A stretch of DNA of 64,000 bases from Candidatus Hermodarchaeota archaeon (lineage in GTDB: Archaea > Asgardarchaeota > Hermodarchaeia > Hermodarchaeales > Hermodarchaeaceae), in the NCBI GenBank assembly GCA_016839805.1, contig JAEOTO010000015.1, positions 50,373 through 114,372 of the forward strand, read 5' to 3'. Below, in pieces: positions 5,933 through 21,510 of this stretch. A model generated the notes under the pieces. The model ran no database searches, was not told the DNA's origin, and saw only the letters and a list, made by a program, of their open reading frames with translations. The translations under genes were made by a program, and so were the position numbers. Every line of letters starts with the position of its first letter. Within the stretch, counting starts at the first letter, position 1.

Positions 5933-6691
5933 ATGCCATTTCACCTTATTGACGGAAAACAACTGTTTTATCAGATTCAGGGTCAAGGATTACCCTTAGT
6001 CCTAATCCATAGTTCGATGCAAAGCCACCGACAGTGGCAATACCAACAGAGCATAGCGAAGCAGGAACGACTCATTTTATTAGATTTGCCTGGGCATGGT
6101 CAATCCGAGCAATTGGATGGTGACGTTTCAGTAAAGCGTTTAACAAGCATTGTTGCCCAACTCATTCAAAAATTAGATTTCGATAAAATCATTTTTCTGG
6201 GACACTCCATCGGTGGAGCAATCGGACTTCAGTTTGCCCTTGATTATGCTGAACTTTTAGAGGGACTCATATTAGTTGGAACAGGAGCAAAAATGGGTGT
6301 GTTTCCAGCGATTTTGGAAGATATCCGAACGCATTATCATGAGGGCATTGAACTTACCATTGGTCAGCTCGGATTTGGATCAACTGCGGACCCCAAGCTC
6401 GTCGAATTTGCAAAGCAAGAATGTTTTCACTGTAATCCTAAGGTGGCCTACGATGATTTTAATGCCTGTAACAACTTTGACGTTCGACAGCGACTCAACC
6501 AAATACACATACCAACCCTAGTCATTGTAGGGGATGAAGACCAACTCACACCCTTGAAGTGGTCTCAATTCCTCGCGAACCAGATACCCAATGCTGACTT
6601 GGTGGTCATCGAAAGTGCAGGTCATATGGTGATGATGGAACAACCCGAGCAATTCAACAATGCTATCAAGTCATTTCTTCAGAAATTTTGA
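5933..6691 (+). CDS. Alpha/beta hydrolase
   Basis: DLPGHG, nucleophile GHSIG, GDEDQLTP, AGHM. Confidence 0.92.
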   Translation: MPFHLIDGKQLFYQIQGQGLPLVLIHSSMQSHRQWQYQQSIAKQERLILLDLPGHGQSEQLDGDVSVKRLTSIVAQLIQKLDFDKIIFLGHSIGGAIGLQFALDYAELLEGLILVGTGAKMGVFPAILEDIRTHYHEGIELTIGQLGFGSTADPKLVEFAKQECFHCNPKVAYDDFNACNNFDVRQRLNQIHIPTLVIVGDEDQLTPLKWSQFLANQIPNADLVVIESAGHMVMMEQPEQFNNAIKSFLQKF

Positions 6692-6715
6692 GTATTTCAT
6701 CGAATATTTCTGGAT

Positions 6716-6877
6716 GCCGGTATAGGAGTCCTTATAGAGTTTCACTCCATATTGGGGCTGCTTCTCTTAGATGGGCGGAGATAACGAGAAGCTATTGGAA
6801 GTATGGTCGCATTGGCGGGATTGTCACATGCCACCCAGCTGTTGACGATTCTTCTAGTCTCCGCCCCCCGCCATTTT
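6716..6877 (+). ncRNA. Candidate double-pseudoknot structured RNA, class unknown
   Basis: Six helices paired by hand; G-U pairs favour the + strand; ends in TTTT; see findings. Confidence 0.6.
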
Positions 6878-6944
6878 CTATAATCTGTAAATTTTTCTAA
6901 ATCTTATTGTAAATGGTTAACAAAATTCCATTGAAGGGATTAAT

Positions 6945-7769
6945 GTGCCTGAACTTCCTGATATCCTTCTGCTAGCAGAAAGCATGAACAAAGCATTAGT
7001 TGAAAAGATAATTTTCGATTCCAAGGTGAACCAGCCCAAAGTCTTGAACTATTCTAAATCCACATTTCAAAAGCGTGTTAAAGGACGTTGTTTTCAGGGG
7101 TTTCGTCAACGAGGGAAATGGGTGATTAGTTATTTAGATAATAAATGGATGATTGCATTCAATTTGGGGATGGGGGGTGAACTTCGACTTCATTGGTCCG
7201 TTGAGACACCAGATCCAAAACGAGAAAGAATCATCTTCTTCTTCGAAAACGGTGATCAACTCTGGGTGCATTTTTGGTGGTTTGGACATGTTCACCTCAT
7301 TAAACCCGGAAATGAAGCAAAACACGCACAATTAGGTACACTTGGTATTGAACCACTTAGTGATGCATTTACATCAGAGGTTCTCGCTTCGATACTTCAA
7401 AACAAAAAGGGGCGCATCAAAAGTTACTTGCTGGACCAAAAGTTCATTGCAGGTATAGGTAATGTTTACGTCCAAGATATTCTCTGGTATGCTCGCCTTC
7501 ACCCTAATCGTAAAGCCAATACACTCAATCTAGTTGATATTGAACGCCTCCATGAAGCTATCCAGCACGTTCTTCAGGAGGGCATTCGTTGGGGTCCTGG
7601 TCCCGGAGAGCAAGATGTATGGGGGCAACGAGGTCAGTGGGGAAAAAAACCAGGATGGCCACAAATAGCCTACAGGACAGGAAAATCCTGCCCTACATGT
7701 CAAACAGTCGTGGAAGAGGTACGGATCGGGAGTACCACGAGTTATATCTGTCCGCATTGTCAAAGCTAG
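6945..7769 (+). CDS. mutM: Fpg/Nei-family DNA glycosylase
   Basis: N-terminal PELPD, RGK, LGM.G, H2TH LLDQ..IAGIGNVY and a C-terminal CxxC...CxxCQ zinc finger. Confidence 0.85.
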   Translation: MPELPDILLLAESMNKALVEKIIFDSKVNQPKVLNYSKSTFQKRVKGRCFQGFRQRGKWVISYLDNKWMIAFNLGMGGELRLHWSVETPDPKRERIIFFFENGDQLWVHFWWFGHVHLIKPGNEAKHAQLGTLGIEPLSDAFTSEVLASILQNKKGRIKSYLLDQKFIAGIGNVYVQDILWYARLHPNRKANTLNLVDIERLHEAIQHVLQEGIRWGPGPGEQDVWGQRGQWGKKPGWPQIAYRTGKSCPTCQTVVEEVRIGSTTSYICPHCQS

Positions 7770-15721: not shown

Positions 15722-15812
15722 CTAGTTAATATTAAGAATTTAGTAGATTCTGAAATCTAATCTCCATGTGATACGCTTAGGAGACACACAATTTCAGTAA
15801 CTTTGAGTTGGT

Positions 15813-17165
15813 CTAATTTGTGGGAATGGATAATTTAGTCCAGTCAACGAAATCTTCGCGTTTACGGTCAATGCGCGTACTTAACCAGGTAATAAGGTCA
15901 TGAACAGTTTTGATAGCAGCAGGGTGCATCATCATGAAAACATCCACACCTGCTAAGAGGAACATCAGTGCTGTTGTACTCTCCCAAATAGGTCCTCGAA
16001 GCTCTCGGGGTCCCAATTCAGGTCGTTTCATCCAGGCTTCCCGGGCTGCCCAGGCATTTGTTGTGCCACTACTTAACGGAAATTGAAGTTCTGAATCCCC
16101 TAATAATCCCGCTAATCGCATGCGTTCCATGATGGTGAAACTATACTCCGCACCATAGCCCAGAGCTGCCGTTGTCGGATCGATGATAATTTGATCCGGG
16201 GTGATGTAATCGAGGAGTCGACGATTGAGTTCCTTTTGCTGGTTGATATCAATGCTAGTCCAAGAGAGTACAAGTTGATTATGGGCCTTAGCTGCTTTGG
16301 CCACAGGTTCCCACATATCGACGGTAGCTGACGCAAGCAGGACACGTTCGCCTTCAGCGACTTCAGCAGCCTTAGCGAGTATTTCGGCATCCTTCGTTGG
16401 ATCGCCGGAACCCCCGACGATGATTGGTACCTTTACTGCCTGTAATACCTTTTCAAAACCTTTCATTGCCTCTTTTACGCTTGTATCCTCGAGGAGGGGA
16501 TCGGTGCTAATCATGTGATAAGTGATGAAGTCTGCATCGAATTTGTCGATGACGAGTCGTGCCCAGTCGACAGGATCATCCATGACATCATCGTAATGGA
16601 CACGAACAGCTTTGGCGAGTTTAATCCGCATGTCAAAGACGTCAGCAGCGACAACAGGTAGATGCTTTGGTGAAGACTGAAAGAGATTCCAGGCAGGAGT
16701 CTTATGGCCACCCACTGTGATCGTTTTACTTCGCGATCCGCCTTCGGCTTTTGTAGCACCAAGAGTGATTTCACGGATTTGACCGGAATACTCTGTTAGT
16801 GGTGCCTTGAAACGGGCTTTAAGTAACTTATCAGGGCGAACAGCTGTCGGAATCCCTGGGATGGACACAGATGATTGCCCAGTGGACATTTGTACATTGT
16901 ATCCCAAGGCTGCGAGCATTTGCTGGGCAAATTGTTGCATGGCAAAAGCGTTTTGCGCGAGGAATTGGTGAGCTGGTCCAGCTATACCCCCAACACCTCC
17001 TGGGGGAACAGTAACTTCGAGTTCATCGACATCAATGGTTATCTCTTCCAGTTCCAATTCTTGGAACTTGCCAAATATGGCTTCCAGGGGACCTAGAATA
17101 CCTAGTGCGGGATCATCTCCGGACAGCACGAGCTCGTTTTTCTCTTTCTTCTTTTTTGGCGACAT
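15813..17165 (-). CDS. cdhD: CODH/ACS delta subunit (corrinoid Fe-S protein small subunit)
   Basis: GGSG.P.KD.E, IDPTT.ALGYG.EY, ERMRLAGL.GD, WE..TA, MMMHP. Confidence 0.95.
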   Translation of the reverse strand: MSPKKKKEKNELVLSGDDPALGILGPLEAIFGKFQELELEEITIDVDELEVTVPPGGVGGIAGPAHQFLAQNAFAMQQFAQQMLAALGYNVQMSTGQSSVSIPGIPTAVRPDKLLKARFKAPLTEYSGQIREITLGATKAEGGSRSKTITVGGHKTPAWNLFQSSPKHLPVVAADVFDMRIKLAKAVRVHYDDVMDDPVDWARLVIDKFDADFITYHMISTDPLLEDTSVKEAMKGFEKVLQAVKVPIIVGGSGDPTKDAEILAKAAEVAEGERVLLASATVDMWEPVAKAAKAHNQLVLSWTSIDINQQKELNRRLLDYITPDQIIIDPTTAALGYGAEYSFTIMERMRLAGLLGDSELQFPLSSGTTNAWAAREAWMKRPELGPRELRGPIWESTTALMFLLAGVDVFMMMHPAAIKTVHDLITWLSTRIDRKREDFVDWTKLSIPTN

Positions 17166-17180
17166 GATTCATCGCCTCGC

Positions 17181-18611
17181 CTACTTCTTCGCCTTTTCAT
17201 CCAGGCGTTTTATTATGACCTTTTCAGCGTAGATTTTTGCATTCTTGAAGATAATCTGGAATCCTGGACTACCACCAGCCGCAGGCACAGTGGTCATCAT
17301 TTGACCTGGCATCATGAAAGGTTGACTAGCTTGTGTCGTTGGAGCTGCTTCTTCAACGCGTTCTTCTTCCTCAAGGCGAGCCGCTGCACCAGTTTCAGTC
17401 CAGCGCTCAACGACTGGGTGATTATGGTCTTGTAGGTATCGTTTTAATTCATCGATATCAGAAACATCGTTTTCTGTAGGAATGATATCTCTCAGATTAT
17501 CAGGCATGAAGTCATAGATTCTGTCTTTGATAGCTTTGGGCAACCAGACAACTCTTTCCCACCCTCCATCAACTTGAAGGAATTTGGGTGATCGCATATA
17601 TTCTATCGAAACCCCATGAAAACCAGGAATCTGGCGACCACCAGCTGTCGAATCAGCCATCGTTGAAAATGGCAAGCCATTTACAGAAGGACCCTTGTAA
17701 TCACGGTGAACTAAACCAAGACCATCAACTTCTGGGATGATAAAAGCAATTGCTTCGAAACAACCACAACTAGTATGTGGTTTATCAAAAGCACTATACA
17801 AACATACCTCAGTAACCGCACCCAAGGTTTTTTCCTTGTAGGCTTGATTAACCCCCTTGTATTCGCCTTTGAACTCATCAATGACATCACCTTTCTCTAT
17901 GGAAAATAAAGGTCCCTTCGGATCAACACGTGCAGCCGCACGACCATCGAACCACGAAATCGCACCACAATTTGCATAGCGCTGTGCAGTAATGGTACAA
18001 CAATGGGTTGGGGCAAAACTTTGGCAGAGTGTGCAACCATAAAAGACATCAACCTCTTCGTCTTTTAGACCACGAGCGCGAGCGTCACGTTCATCATACC
18101 GTTTTATTGCAGCATCGAATTGTTCAGCGATTTTATCAGGATCAGTAAAGAAGGTGATTTGGATTTTCTCGATAATAGGTAGTTCACTCTTGTAAAGGCG
18201 TTCGTAAACTTGACCAAATACCTTAAAGGAATTGAGTCCTTTTTGGAATGATTTCTTGCTAATGCGAATCCAAATGTCGTATCTTTGGTTTAGGTGCATA
18301 ACCCCTTCCATGAAGTTGGTATATTCGTGGACGTGGCGTTCGAGGACGCCCTCCAGGTCTTCTTCGACTTCTTTACCTGCAACTTCTATCAAGATTCCAA
18401 GCGGATGGTAACCTCCTTCGTCCAAATCTTTGAGATCAGGACCAACGACAGTAATTTTACCATCTTCGACTTCTGCAGCTTTCTTGGCGAGAACGAGTTC
18501 GAATTTCTTTTCGATTTTTGGTCCGCCGAGTTCGACTTGCATATCGCCCTTGCGAATGCGTTCACCCTCATAGATTACACCTACTTCCATTGGGAGATCT
18601 TCGAATGACAT
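17181..18611 (-). CDS. cdhC: Acetyl-CoA synthase beta subunit
   Basis: YEGERIR, FYGCTLCQSFAP, NCGA, PHTSCGCFE (A-cluster ligands intact). Confidence 0.97.
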   Translation of the reverse strand: MSFEDLPMEVGVIYEGERIRKGDMQVELGGPKIEKKFELVLAKKAAEVEDGKITVVGPDLKDLDEGGYHPLGILIEVAGKEVEEDLEGVLERHVHEYTNFMEGVMHLNQRYDIWIRISKKSFQKGLNSFKVFGQVYERLYKSELPIIEKIQITFFTDPDKIAEQFDAAIKRYDERDARARGLKDEEVDVFYGCTLCQSFAPTHCCTITAQRYANCGAISWFDGRAAARVDPKGPLFSIEKGDVIDEFKGEYKGVNQAYKEKTLGAVTEVCLYSAFDKPHTSCGCFEAIAFIIPEVDGLGLVHRDYKGPSVNGLPFSTMADSTAGGRQIPGFHGVSIEYMRSPKFLQVDGGWERVVWLPKAIKDRIYDFMPDNLRDIIPTENDVSDIDELKRYLQDHNHPVVERWTETGAAARLEEEERVEEAAPTTQASQPFMMPGQMMTTVPAAGGSPGFQIIFKNAKIYAEKVIIKRLDEKAKK

Positions 18612-18612
18612 T

Positions 18613-19158
18613 CTATTTCTTACCTCCATTTTTAGTGAGGATTTCTTTTAGTGCATCATTCCATTTTTGTTTCTTTAAATTCGGGAAGGACCACGACGCA
18701 TGGGGTTGGAAATACCGACCTAAACTGACAGTTTTCATTTCAGTGGAGAAGTTGACTAGGGCGGAGAGCATTAGCCACTCCATATAATAGGGGAAACCAA
18801 AGGTCATGACAAGGTCATGCGGGCCCTTCTTCGGTGCCACCATCCATTCAGGGTCAGTCAGTAGATATGTGATTTCCATAGCGTTGTGGGAGTATACGTT
18901 TTTGAATCCTTTTTCCTTGAAGGCTTTAATGGTTTGAGCGGTTGCGACAATGGGGATGTTCCAATTCTCGGAAAATTCGATGAAGTAGTCAATCATCGAC
19001 TTTTTCCGAGTTTGCTCTGTTAGGCTGTTGGCACCCACAACAAGAAGAGGATGTTTTGCTTTCTTGAGAAGTGCCTTGACCACGACGGGTTTTTCGAGTG
19101 ATTGGGCTTTCTTTGGACCACAGACTTCAGCAGTCTGCCAGGGTTCAGCACGCATCAT
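18613..19158 (-). CDS. cdhB: CODH/ACS epsilon subunit
   Basis: AKHPLLVVG, DPEW...HDLV, QPHASWSFPN; lies between cdhA and cdhC. Confidence 0.93.
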   Translation of the reverse strand: MMRAEPWQTAEVCGPKKAQSLEKPVVVKALLKKAKHPLLVVGANSLTEQTRKKSMIDYFIEFSENWNIPIVATAQTIKAFKEKGFKNVYSHNAMEITYLLTDPEWMVAPKKGPHDLVMTFGFPYYMEWLMLSALVNFSTEMKTVSLGRYFQPHASWSFPNLKKQKWNDALKEILTKNGGKK

Positions 19159-21510
19159 TTACCCATCACCTCCACCATAGACCATACGCTGTAGAATTGT
19201 TGGATCTGGAATGGGCTTCTCTTGCCATTTGTGTTCTTTCATGTGAACGTGGATTTTATCTTTAAGGGTGATGGGGATATCCGATTCTCGGCGAATGAAG
19301 CTATGTACGTCGTCAGGGAAGTAACCATAGTACCGTTCATGAAGATCGATGTAGTGGCTGAGCTTTATGGACCGACCTCTGCTAGTGTCGTTGGGTCGGA
19401 AGCAAAGCTTTGCGGTCATTACCATGCACTCTTCCATAGTTTCTACTGCATAGAAGAGGTGTTCAGGAGCTGGCGCAATTTGGACTTGGTTGCCAGTTCG
19501 TGCATCGTACACCTTCCAGTCCTCTGCTTTGTCTGCACGTCCAAGTAACATTCGGCGATATTTCGTTCCATGTGGACCAACGATTACTGGAACTCCAAGG
19601 CGCCAAAAGCCAGAAGCAATTGAAGCTGCTTTTTGTGACATAGCGCCCCAAGATATACCAACTGCACCAACTCGGTTGAGGATGTAGTCAGCGATTTCTT
19701 CATAGTTTCCACGAAGGTTACGTTTCGCGAAGATGCTTGCAATTTTGATGGCAGCACCCGCAATGTGGGGATTCGAAACACAGGAGCCCACGTTAACGAC
19801 ACCACCTGCATCAAAAGCGCCCGTACGTCGTTCGTAGATACTTTTTCCTTCTTCGTCTTTAACAGTACCAACAGTCATAGCTGCGCAACCAGAGAGTACA
19901 ATGATGAAGCGGCGTTTTGCGAATTCTTCAGCCATGTCATGAATTGCTCGTCCTCCGTCAGGATAATTAGCACATCCAACATGTGCAATTACGCCTGGGA
20001 TTTCTCCGAAAACAACAGGTTGCCCCACGGCCCGTATCTCTGTATCTTTGATGGCACCACGCCCTGTCCGAACCTTAAAGGACTCGTTCATCCAACGATC
20101 TTTTGCTGCAGTAACCATCCAGCTATGAAGCTCATATTCGTTGGGACAAGCTGATTCACATCGCGCACATCCAATGCATTCATCATAAACATCTACAAGT
20201 GGACCAAAGTTTCCTTCAGATGCTGCTAGTACTGCTTCCATGACTGGTTGATCATTGGGACAAGCCCTTCGGCATTCTGAACATTGTCGGCAGGTTTGGG
20301 CGAGTTCTTTAATTTTGTTCTTGCTTGGCAATGAGGATTTCTTCTTACGTTTTGGTTTCACAGCCAGAGCAGTCTTTACGACTACTTCACCCACTTTACT
20401 ATGGTCGCCAATGAAGACTCCAGGCACTTTAAAGGAGACTAAATCAGCAACAATCGCATCCACATCATCATTTGTACGATCTGGTAAGCCCATACAAGAT
20501 TTATCACAAGTAGCAATAACTGGTGTTTTGACTTTTGCTGCATGCAATGGAATATCTGTCCGAATACATTGTTCATCAACAACCAAAACGTCAGCTAAGC
20601 CACTTCGCACAAAACGTAGTTGCCAAGAGATAGGACCGACAATCTTGGCTTTGGAGTCATGTCTGGTTATATCCCAGGCTGTGCAGCAAATTCCACTGAC
20701 ATCGACCTTATCTTGGAGTCCGTGCTCCATTGAATAATCAGTTATCGCTGCAGCGGGAACAACATTGTGTCCGATACATAGGATCGTAGCTTTTGACTGA
20801 TCCATGGAGGCGATGCCAGCTTCAACTAATGGTGCCTCTGGATCTGATTGGGGAAAGCCCATTGTGGAGATTTGAACCAGATCCGCGATTTCCATCCCCA
20901 CTTGGTCAATCATTCCAGCATGAAGTACCTTTGATTCAAAGTCTAACCAACTGCCCTCTTGACCCGTATGGACTGCTGACAAAGTATGTGTAAGTTGAGT
21001 TTCACAATAATCGATAATCGATGACGCATCTTCTAAAGAACGAGGGCGAATTCCAGTTACTAACCGTGAAACAGGAGCTTCAATATCTACACCCTCGCCT
21101 TGCGTTAAAGGTGTTCGTGGACCAAATTCATGAATCAAATGATCAACAAGATGTCGAGCATGCGCCAAGTGTGCCGCACACCCGATGTTCGCGGCAGCCA
21201 ACACAATTCGTGCGGACTGTCCCTTAATGTCCAGACCACAAGCTCCGCGTTTTCCACCCGTCAGGTCACATTTACCGAAGGTACAAAGACAGCACAGCTG
21301 ACAAGCTGGCATGTATGAGGGTTGGTAACGCTTCAGGAGTTTGTGGTCCCAATCGCGAAGCGTGGTGACTTCTGGCATGGGAGTTGGTCCCATGGGTTCG
21401 TCCCAGTCTTCATCGATAACTCTGCCAATACTGACTTCGACGTTGCGGAAACTTCCGAAACCGGTGTCAAGTCGATCGGCTCGTATTCGGGCCCGTTTTT
21501 GTTCTGTCAA
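19159..21510 (-). CDS. cdhA: CO dehydrogenase alpha subunit
   Basis: MGPTP.P, CQLCCLCTFGKC, GHNV, GICCTA, DEQC, two ferredoxin motifs, GSCVSN; start probably TTG 21510 rather than 21612. Confidence 0.97.
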   Translation of the reverse strand: MTEQKRARIRADRLDTGFGSFRNVEVSIGRVIDEDWDEPMGPTPMPEVTTLRDWDHKLLKRYQPSYMPACQLCCLCTFGKCDLTGGKRGACGLDIKGQSARIVLAAANIGCAAHLAHARHLVDHLIHEFGPRTPLTQGEGVDIEAPVSRLVTGIRPRSLEDASSIIDYCETQLTHTLSAVHTGQEGSWLDFESKVLHAGMIDQVGMEIADLVQISTMGFPQSDPEAPLVEAGIASMDQSKATILCIGHNVVPAAAITDYSMEHGLQDKVDVSGICCTAWDITRHDSKAKIVGPISWQLRFVRSGLADVLVVDEQCIRTDIPLHAAKVKTPVIATCDKSCMGLPDRTNDDVDAIVADLVSFKVPGVFIGDHSKVGEVVVKTALAVKPKRKKKSSLPSKNKIKELAQTCRQCSECRRACPNDQPVMEAVLAASEGNFGPLVDVYDECIGCARCESACPNEYELHSWMVTAAKDRWMNESFKVRTGRGAIKDTEIRAVGQPVVFGEIPGVIAHVGCANYPDGGRAIHDMAEEFAKRRFIIVLSGCAAMTVGTVKDEEGKSIYERRTGAFDAGGVVNVGSCVSNPHIAGAAIKIASIFAKRNLRGNYEEIADYILNRVGAVGISWGAMSQKAASIASGFWRLGVPVIVGPHGTKYRRMLLGRADKAEDWKVYDARTGNQVQIAPAPEHLFYAVETMEECMVMTAKLCFRPNDTSRGRSIKLSHYIDLHERYYGYFPDDVHSFIRRESDIPITLKDKIHVHMKEHKWQEKPIPDPTILQRMVYGGGDG

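Follow-up and report, generated by a model that had tools for sequence, protein, structure and literature searches.

Asgard archaea are the closest known prokaryotic relatives of eukaryotes. Several groups of described RNAs come close, each in a different respect, to an intergenic element that we found in one of these archaea. The stable-RNA genes of the same genomes likewise carry a BRE-like purine block and an AT-rich box roughly 25 nt upstream of the point where conservation begins, have a GC content above the genome mean, and occur once per genome, and the conservation of the element falls between the levels of RNase P RNA and SRP RNA. SRP RNA, RNase P RNA and tRNA are universal, whereas the element occurs in one genus and shows no sequence or model similarity to any of them. 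HDV-like ribozymes have a 7-bp P1 that stands at the cleavage site and opens with a G-U pair; the interval from their P2 5' strand to their P1 3' strand accommodates P3 (3 bp), L3 (about 7 nt) and P1.1. The SAM-II, preQ1-II/III, ZTP and fluoride riboswitches resemble the element in that the loop of a 5' hairpin forms a pseudoknot with a 3' strand ahead of a gene on the same strand. Exonuclease-resistant RNAs, namely flaviviral xrRNA and its relatives, bury their 5' end in a pseudoknot that contains an internal junction, an arrangement that can block 5'-to-3' decay. The element shares this topology only; the three-way junction and conserved nucleotides of xrRNAs were not identified in it, and a block to decay is a possibility suggested by analogy. 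By comparative genomics, Weinberg et al. (2017; PMC5737381) described 224 candidate structured-RNA motifs in bacteria. Such bacterial orphan motifs are, like the element, GC-rich conserved intergenic blocks of narrow range that are defined by comparison and have no assigned function; the element differs in being archaeal (Asgard), in varying little, and in lacking the covariation support that most of them have. Our search of the literature found no description of non-coding RNAs from Hermodarchaeota and no survey of new structured RNAs in Asgard archaea.

Here we analysed a 64,000-nt stretch of a Hermodarchaeota genome (the window; source assembly of 2.3 Mb, 87% complete, labelled G000 below), in which a sequence-only reading had proposed an unannotated RNA of about 160 nt folded into a double pseudoknot. 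All parts of the element described below, and fpg, lie on the + strand. The best reading of our comparisons is that the element is a real feature and appears to represent a new archaeal family of structured small RNAs, in part as that reading described it. With a probability that we put at roughly 0.6, the locus would be a separate gene whose product is a structured small non-coding RNA, a member of a new family that, as sampled, is confined to one genus of Hermodarchaeia.

Results

A core of about 110 nt occupies the same locus across one genus

The conserved core corresponds to window positions 6760-6869 and is unannotated. Searching the DNA of relatives, we found it in single copy in 10 of 14 congeneric genomes; seven metagenome contigs carried it as well. 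The set used for comparison held 18 copies (17 distinct), three of them added by metagenome contigs and four by a route through the Fpg protein, in which contigs were fetched by their Fpg homologs and the RNA sequence was not presupposed. These four copies retain the same invariant blocks as the others. The element had been placed between a hydrolase gene and mutM, the latter being the Fpg gene (fpg), and the same neighbours recur across copies: the order alpha/beta hydrolase, element, fpg on one strand was found by tblastn in 14 copies and from called genes in the four copies of the Fpg-protein route. As for the congeners without the element, the contig of G005 stops within the upstream hydrolase gene, and the other three (72-83% complete) have no orthologous hydrolase; G002, the one tested, also has no orthologous fpg.

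Outside the genus, a covariance model of the core found the element in none of four genomes of the sister genus (80-83% complete), where the locus of the Fpg ortholog has a different upstream gene and no element. A class-wide search with a covariance model gave no further match, family, order and class comprising the same 19 genomes, and the core model found nothing outside the genus in a 151-genome sample of the phylum. When a relaxed 17-base pattern was run against 400 genomes of the phylum, it matched only 11 genomes of the genus, or one of 85 genera. An exact-pattern scan of species-representative genomes and metagenome contigs returned only the genus-level group; nine pattern matches on viral contigs were rejected as chance. 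Because all of these searches rely on sequence similarity, an RNA of related structure and divergent sequence would be missed. Fpg homologs 65-69% identical to the window protein are also encoded on L094, a contig of a MAG named Hodarchaeota, and on L098; they lie in quite different gene neighbourhoods, and the element is absent there, which argues that the hydrolase-RNA-fpg arrangement is specific to one lineage.

The core is about as strongly conserved as RNase P RNA

The mean pairwise identity of core columns was 90%. With gaps counted, the core reached 84% among five genomes, in which RNase P RNA stood at 81% and SRP RNA at 93%. The flanking genes were 60-67% identical and their proteins 50-74% identical, and identity at flanking third codon positions was 33-44%, which is saturation. 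Conservation sets in sharply at 6760 and fades past 6866-6869. Contigs from four independent studies carry many differences to the window in 6637-6747 and 6873-6965; within 6748-6872 they differ by one base (6794) and by two indels known from other species. This pattern of substitutions indicates that the element is under strong purifying selection. The invariance of most of the RNA shows constraint, not its nature, and conservation near the level of RNase P RNA yet absence from the sister genus would be odd for a housekeeping role. Elsewhere in the window, no DNA in the first 20 kb is better conserved than a stretch of about 4.2 kb at 15808-20000, with 74-77% nucleotide identity to three congeners.

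Two blocks within the core stand out. The first is an 18-nt block, ATGGTCGCATTGGCGGGA (6803..6820), identical in 18 of 18 copies; the second reads CAC..ATGCCACCCA (6825..6837) and tolerates 2-nt insertions (AT or GC) after its CAC. Both are mostly unpaired in the conserved model described below, and the second is followed by a hypervariable stretch of 5-7 nt (6838-6842). A trans-acting small RNA that pairs with target mRNAs through an invariant unpaired block would have use for such segments, and the predicted promoter of the element and the terminator-like T run behind it would suit an RNA of this kind. Against this, nearly all 110 nt are conserved and not a seed alone, and complementarity elsewhere in the genome extends to at most 14 nt, which is the chance level. 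We consider base pairing in trans quite improbable. Since constraint covers almost the whole length and goes beyond a seed, a folded RNA that binds a partner is the most likely product, and antisense action is less likely.

The element is non-coding and matches no known RNA family

An ORF of 70 aa (6688-6900) spans the element and was also gene-called on at least one public contig (L097:1771-1983); it has no Pfam match. Within the conserved block, indels of 1 nt (G001, G008, M055, N095), 2 nt (G003, G004, N096) and 3 nt (G000, G013) occur, and the bases around them are fixed at all three codon positions. Because the 1- and 2-nt indels break reading frames while the bases stay fixed, the element does not behave as coding sequence, and the 70-aa ORF is probably a false gene call. 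A smaller ORF starting from the ATG in GGATGG was also rejected, as its frame is not kept.

We then compared the element with known RNAs. Rfam 15 at gathering thresholds gave no match in the whole window, and at E values up to 10 the copy of G000 and the consensus-like copy of G014 returned chance matches only. SRP RNA (RF01857) and RNase P RNA (RF00373) were found above cut-off at other loci in G000 and four congeners, so the element is not a divergent copy of either. ARAGORN reported no tRNA or tmRNA in the window. A tRNA-Sec or split tRNA was rejected: the element lacks a T arm and shows neither a T-loop nor a D-loop motif, and no UCA is conserved within a proper loop; its sole UCA follows an A and is CCA in four copies. 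Neither RUGAUGA nor CUGA is present in the core of any of the 18 copies, which speaks against a box C/D sRNA, and the basal 10-bp stem is followed by CCC, UCC or ACC and never by ACA, which speaks against a box H/ACA sRNA. No K-turn was recognised by eye. A Y RNA was rejected as well, with no TROVE domain in G000 (87% complete) and no match to RF00019; GGAUGGUC and CUAGUC bear a short likeness to the Y RNA stem, but they do not pair here. These searches support the earlier view of a non-coding + strand element that is not a known Rfam family, tRNA, SRP RNA or RNase P RNA, and the empty Rfam result speaks in favour of novelty.

As a separate observation, ARAGORN made 34 tRNA calls in G000, 18 of them with introns and several of these at non-canonical positions; a "tRNA-SeC" with a 1193-nt intron and a "tRNA-Pyl" call look like artefacts.

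The first 45 nt of the proposed RNA resemble an archaeal promoter

Given that the source is an Asgard archaeon, archaeal promoter and terminator rules apply to the window. Upstream of the core we observed a purine-rich block (GGGAAC-like) followed by an AT-rich box whose sequence varies between copies (ATATAAAC, TTATAGAG, TTAAAGAC and others). In 16 of the 18 copies an AT-rich 8-mer is centred 23-27 nt upstream of the invariant block. The predicted promoter of the window copy, a BRE-like purine block and a TATA-like box, spans 6724..6739, with TTATAGAG as the box at 6732-6739. The tRNA-Ile, SRP RNA and RNase P RNA genes of these genomes show the same upstream arrangement. The first conserved base of the element, at position +1, is G in all 18 copies, and position -1 is T or C in all 18. 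From the promoter-like pattern and the first conserved G after a pyrimidine we placed the start at G6760, where transcription is predicted to begin from the BRE/TATA promoter.

This placement bears on the size and the first helix of the RNA as originally drawn. The first approximately 45 nt of the proposed 160-nt element behave as a promoter and not as RNA structure. The first helix of that drawing (6717-6729 with 6744-6755) had 49% of its cells paired across 14 copies, against 48-53% when the partners were slid by 1-3 columns. Hence the helix is probably an archaeal promoter that was mistaken for paired RNA.

About 45 nt 5' of the predicted start lies a further motif, TGCCG at 6715..6719, followed by nAAT to 6723. 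TGCCG is invariant in 17 of 18 copies and reads TGCCA in N096. No TGCCG-like motif was found upstream of other genes in the genome. We regard TGCCG at 6715-6719 as a candidate regulator site. TGCCG can also pair with UGGCG of the core, and the single change in N096 preserves the pair; this pairing, if used, would argue for an earlier transcription start. In the G001 group, the TGCCG region forms a CCG-N4-CGG palindrome.

Four helices and one pseudoknot are compatible with all copies

All six helices of the sequence-only reading can be drawn at their positions in the window. Comparison between species retained some of them, shifted or shortened others, and gave a model of four helices, numbered anew here. 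P1 joins 6760-6766 (GCUUCUC) to 6786-6792 (GAGAAGC) over 7 bp, and its loop carries the 5' strand of P2. As GCUUCUC/GAGAAGY this helix held in full: it is 100% paired in the 17 distinct copies, with an opening pair that is G-U in 10 and G-C in 7. P2 was drawn as GGGCGGAG with CUCCGCCC (6773-6780 / 6859-6866); this pairing is likewise complete in every copy and extends to 10 bp (6773-6782 / 6857-6866), crossing P1. P2 has three variable positions, at which C becomes U opposite G, A becomes G opposite U and, once more, C becomes U opposite G; each keeps a G-U or U-G pair. P3 (6796-6804 / 6848-6856) has 9 bp in most species and abuts P2 on the 3' strand. The register proposed for it, AUUGGAAG with CUUCUAGU (6794-6801 / 6851-6858), is 92% paired, but the 9-bp register, itself paired in 91.5% of cells, fits the other species better. 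The upper five pairs of P3 are near-invariant; its base is loosened in G006 and N093, and in G007 three changes shift the base by one register and do not destroy the helix.

P4 consists of 3 bp in all copies, 6824-6826 (YCA) with 6843-6845 (UGR). One of its pairs (alignment columns 115/139) is U-G in 11, C-G in 4 and U-A in 2 copies and is never unpaired. G000 and G013 carry an inserted UUG that faces a CGA, bulged in the other species, and extends P4 to 7 bp (6820-6826 / 6843-6849). The proposed AUUGUCA/UGACGAU helix is this extended form; it exists in full in those two copies only, because three of its columns are the lineage-specific insertion, and elsewhere it is reduced to YCA/UGR. The last of the proposed helices, UGGCGGG with CCCGCCA, is 81% paired and is absent in G006, G007, G011, M053, N093 and N097. 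It is missing where the 3' tail diverges, and UGGCGGG itself never changes. Neither this helix nor the first one drawn (6717-6729 with 6744-6755) holds as a general feature. The double pseudoknot is reduced by these results: a second one is not established, and one pseudoknot fits all copies. P1 and P2 would form a single H-type pseudoknot that is compatible with every copy.

Across the 18-copy alignment, the four-helix model has 97.4% of its cells paired; with the partners slid, the figure is 45-56%. Six kinds of one-sided change occur in P1, P2 and P4, and each leaves a G-U, G-C or A-U pair in place. Homologs exist, but no two-sided covariation was found relative to the commonest pair form, and a shuffle control of pair counts was not significant (18 copies). 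The helices fit the data and stay unproven. In G000, 38 bp lie in disjoint stems of at least 7 bp; 1000 dinucleotide shuffles give 21 +/- 8, and 21 of these shuffles reach 38, so that about 2% pair comparably. Nested minimum free energies gave z = -1.6 to -3.0 for the 104-109-nt core of six species; for the 171-nt span of the sequence-only reading, z was -1.46 (+ strand) and -1.35 (- strand). Since pairing in a single sequence is only moderately unusual, it could not carry the claim alone. The GC-rich character noted earlier was borne out, at 0.51 for the element against 0.42-0.43 for its flanks and 0.43 for the window.

The G-U pairs, including two that are invariant in P3, would turn into C-A mismatches if the minus strand were the RNA, and they favour the + strand as had been argued from the single sequence. 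This asymmetry bears on the suggestion that the conserved unit is a DNA-level site, such as a regulator array or an origin-like inverted repeat, or else a small protein-coding frame. A 10-bp inverted repeat does flank the core, and gene callers do predict the 70-aa ORF across it. The one-sided changes in P1, P2 and P4, however, keep G-U pairs on one strand only, for which DNA symmetry gives no explanation; near-invariance over 110 nt far exceeds a regulator site, and the GC-rich interior is unlike an origin unwinding element. Together with the frame-breaking indels amid nucleotides fixed at all codon positions, these features make a DNA site or a coding frame extremely improbable.

The topology of P1 and P2 also raised the question of an HDV-like catalytic RNA with a pseudoknotted core, either a ribozyme that cleaves itself or one of another kind. 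As in HDV-like ribozymes, a 7-bp 5' helix that often opens with G-U crosses a helix closed by the 3' end, with a variable hairpin between, and the core nucleotides are highly invariant. Only 4-6 nt separate the 5' strand of P2 from the 3' strand of P1 in the 18 copies, however, which leaves no room for P3, L3 or P1.1 of the HDV fold, and without space for P3 and L3 an HDV-like threading fails. Moreover, 7 of 17 copies open with G-C, and no catalytic C context can be identified. The promoter is predicted directly upstream, so the predicted start leaves no leader to cleave off, and Rfam gave no HDV-type match and no ribozyme family even at E = 10. We consider self-cleavage highly improbable.

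Alternative folds are possible: CUUCUU, the pyrimidine strand of P3, has two potential partners in the purine segments GAGAAG and GGAAGGA.

One metagenome copy has a composite sequence. The 5' part of L056:10767-10939 (JABAOF010006527.1), including the promoter region, is identical to G007, and from the 5' strand of P3 on, through the downstream genes, the contig is identical to G014. L056 is either a natural recombinant with its junction in or near the element, or an assembly chimera.

The candidate 3' end precedes a separate promoter-like region of fpg

Past the core, the C-rich tail CCCGCCA and a first T run (6874-6877) make up a candidate 3' end at 6867..6877, and a second run of five T (6892-6896) is an alternative. 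The C-rich tail is kept in about two thirds of copies, and most copies have a T run of at least 4 within 40 nt after the core. Termination at oligo-T is established in archaea, and by this rule either run in the window may serve. In the G001 group (L003 ~1615-1650 and the matching parts of L004, L055 and L095), a small hairpin CUUC...GAAG is followed by TTTTTATTT, which resembles a bacterial-type terminator in an archaeon; the T run of this group may double as the TATA box of fpg.

The downstream neighbour, outside the RNA, is fpg (6945..7769), which encodes an Fpg/Nei DNA glycosylase with Pfam domains H2TH and Fapy_DNA_glyco. The gene carries a T-rich TATA-like box of its own some 45-55 nt upstream of the start codon and, after the box, a Shine-Dalgarno-like motif of the GGAGG type. 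A TATA-like box and then a Shine-Dalgarno-like motif near the start codon are the usual layout of archaeal short-leader mRNAs. Most copies have 67-83 nt between the core and fpg, against about 118 nt in G011 and 185 nt in G007; the sequence of this spacer is unconserved.

We asked whether the element could instead be a cis-acting 5' leader of fpg, whose fold would depend, perhaps, on a ligand (a damaged base, for example) and would control read-through of the T run or access to the ribosome-binding site. In all 18 copies the element stands on the same strand directly before fpg. A T run comes after the core, and the alternative folds of GAGAAG/GGAAGGA against CUUCUU could provide a switch. In addition, GGAAGGAU resembles the Shine-Dalgarno region of fpg, and the pyrimidine strand could in principle mask that region. 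However, the TATA-like box of fpg and the variable, unconserved spacer, together with Fpg orthologs of the sister genus and of other Asgard contigs that have no element, favour a separate transcription unit. The separate box and the spacing of 67-185 nt make a cis-acting fpg riboswitch less likely. The element is also much larger than the riboswitches with an H-type pseudoknot, matches no riboswitch family, and differs from them in the variable spacing and in a downstream gene that seems to have its own promoter. To our knowledge, no riboswitch has so far been shown to control transcription termination in an archaeon. We conclude that a leader function for fpg is unlikely.

Discussion

The explanation that we prefer is an independent gene for a structured small RNA, and the order of events it proposes can be read along the locus. 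The BRE/TATA promoter at 6724-6739 would drive an RNA from G6760, and the transcript would end at an oligo-T run, near 6877 or 6896, giving a length of about 110-135 nt. Its very 5' end would form the 7-bp P1, the loop of which would supply one strand of the 10-bp P2; closure of P2 by the 3' end would produce the H-type pseudoknot. P2 would stack on the 9-bp P3, which would lead to the short P4 and the two invariant, largely unpaired blocks. The folded RNA would then bind a protein or a ligand, as an RNP scaffold or similar, and the 5' pseudoknot would shield it from 5'-to-3' exonucleases.

A more specific proposal is that the element is a lineage-specific ligand-binding or catalytic RNA, of a new riboswitch or ribozyme class, or else the RNA subunit of an Asgard RNP, with the invariant unpaired blocks as the active or binding site in a pseudoknotted core. 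We consider this proposal quite unlikely. The functional classes put forward by the sequence-only reading, namely ribozyme, riboswitch, exonuclease block and two-state switch, stay candidates.

For the annotation of these genomes, the analysis corrects one call, as the 70-aa ORF predicted over the element is probably spurious. It also provides a worked example of a probable archaeal promoter taken for an RNA helix. If the reading as an independent small RNA gene is true, the locus offers a concrete, testable candidate: a single-copy RNA gene, found in one genus, whose conservation is close to that of RNase P RNA. Such conservation in combination with so narrow a range would point to a function that evolved recently and is tightly constrained.
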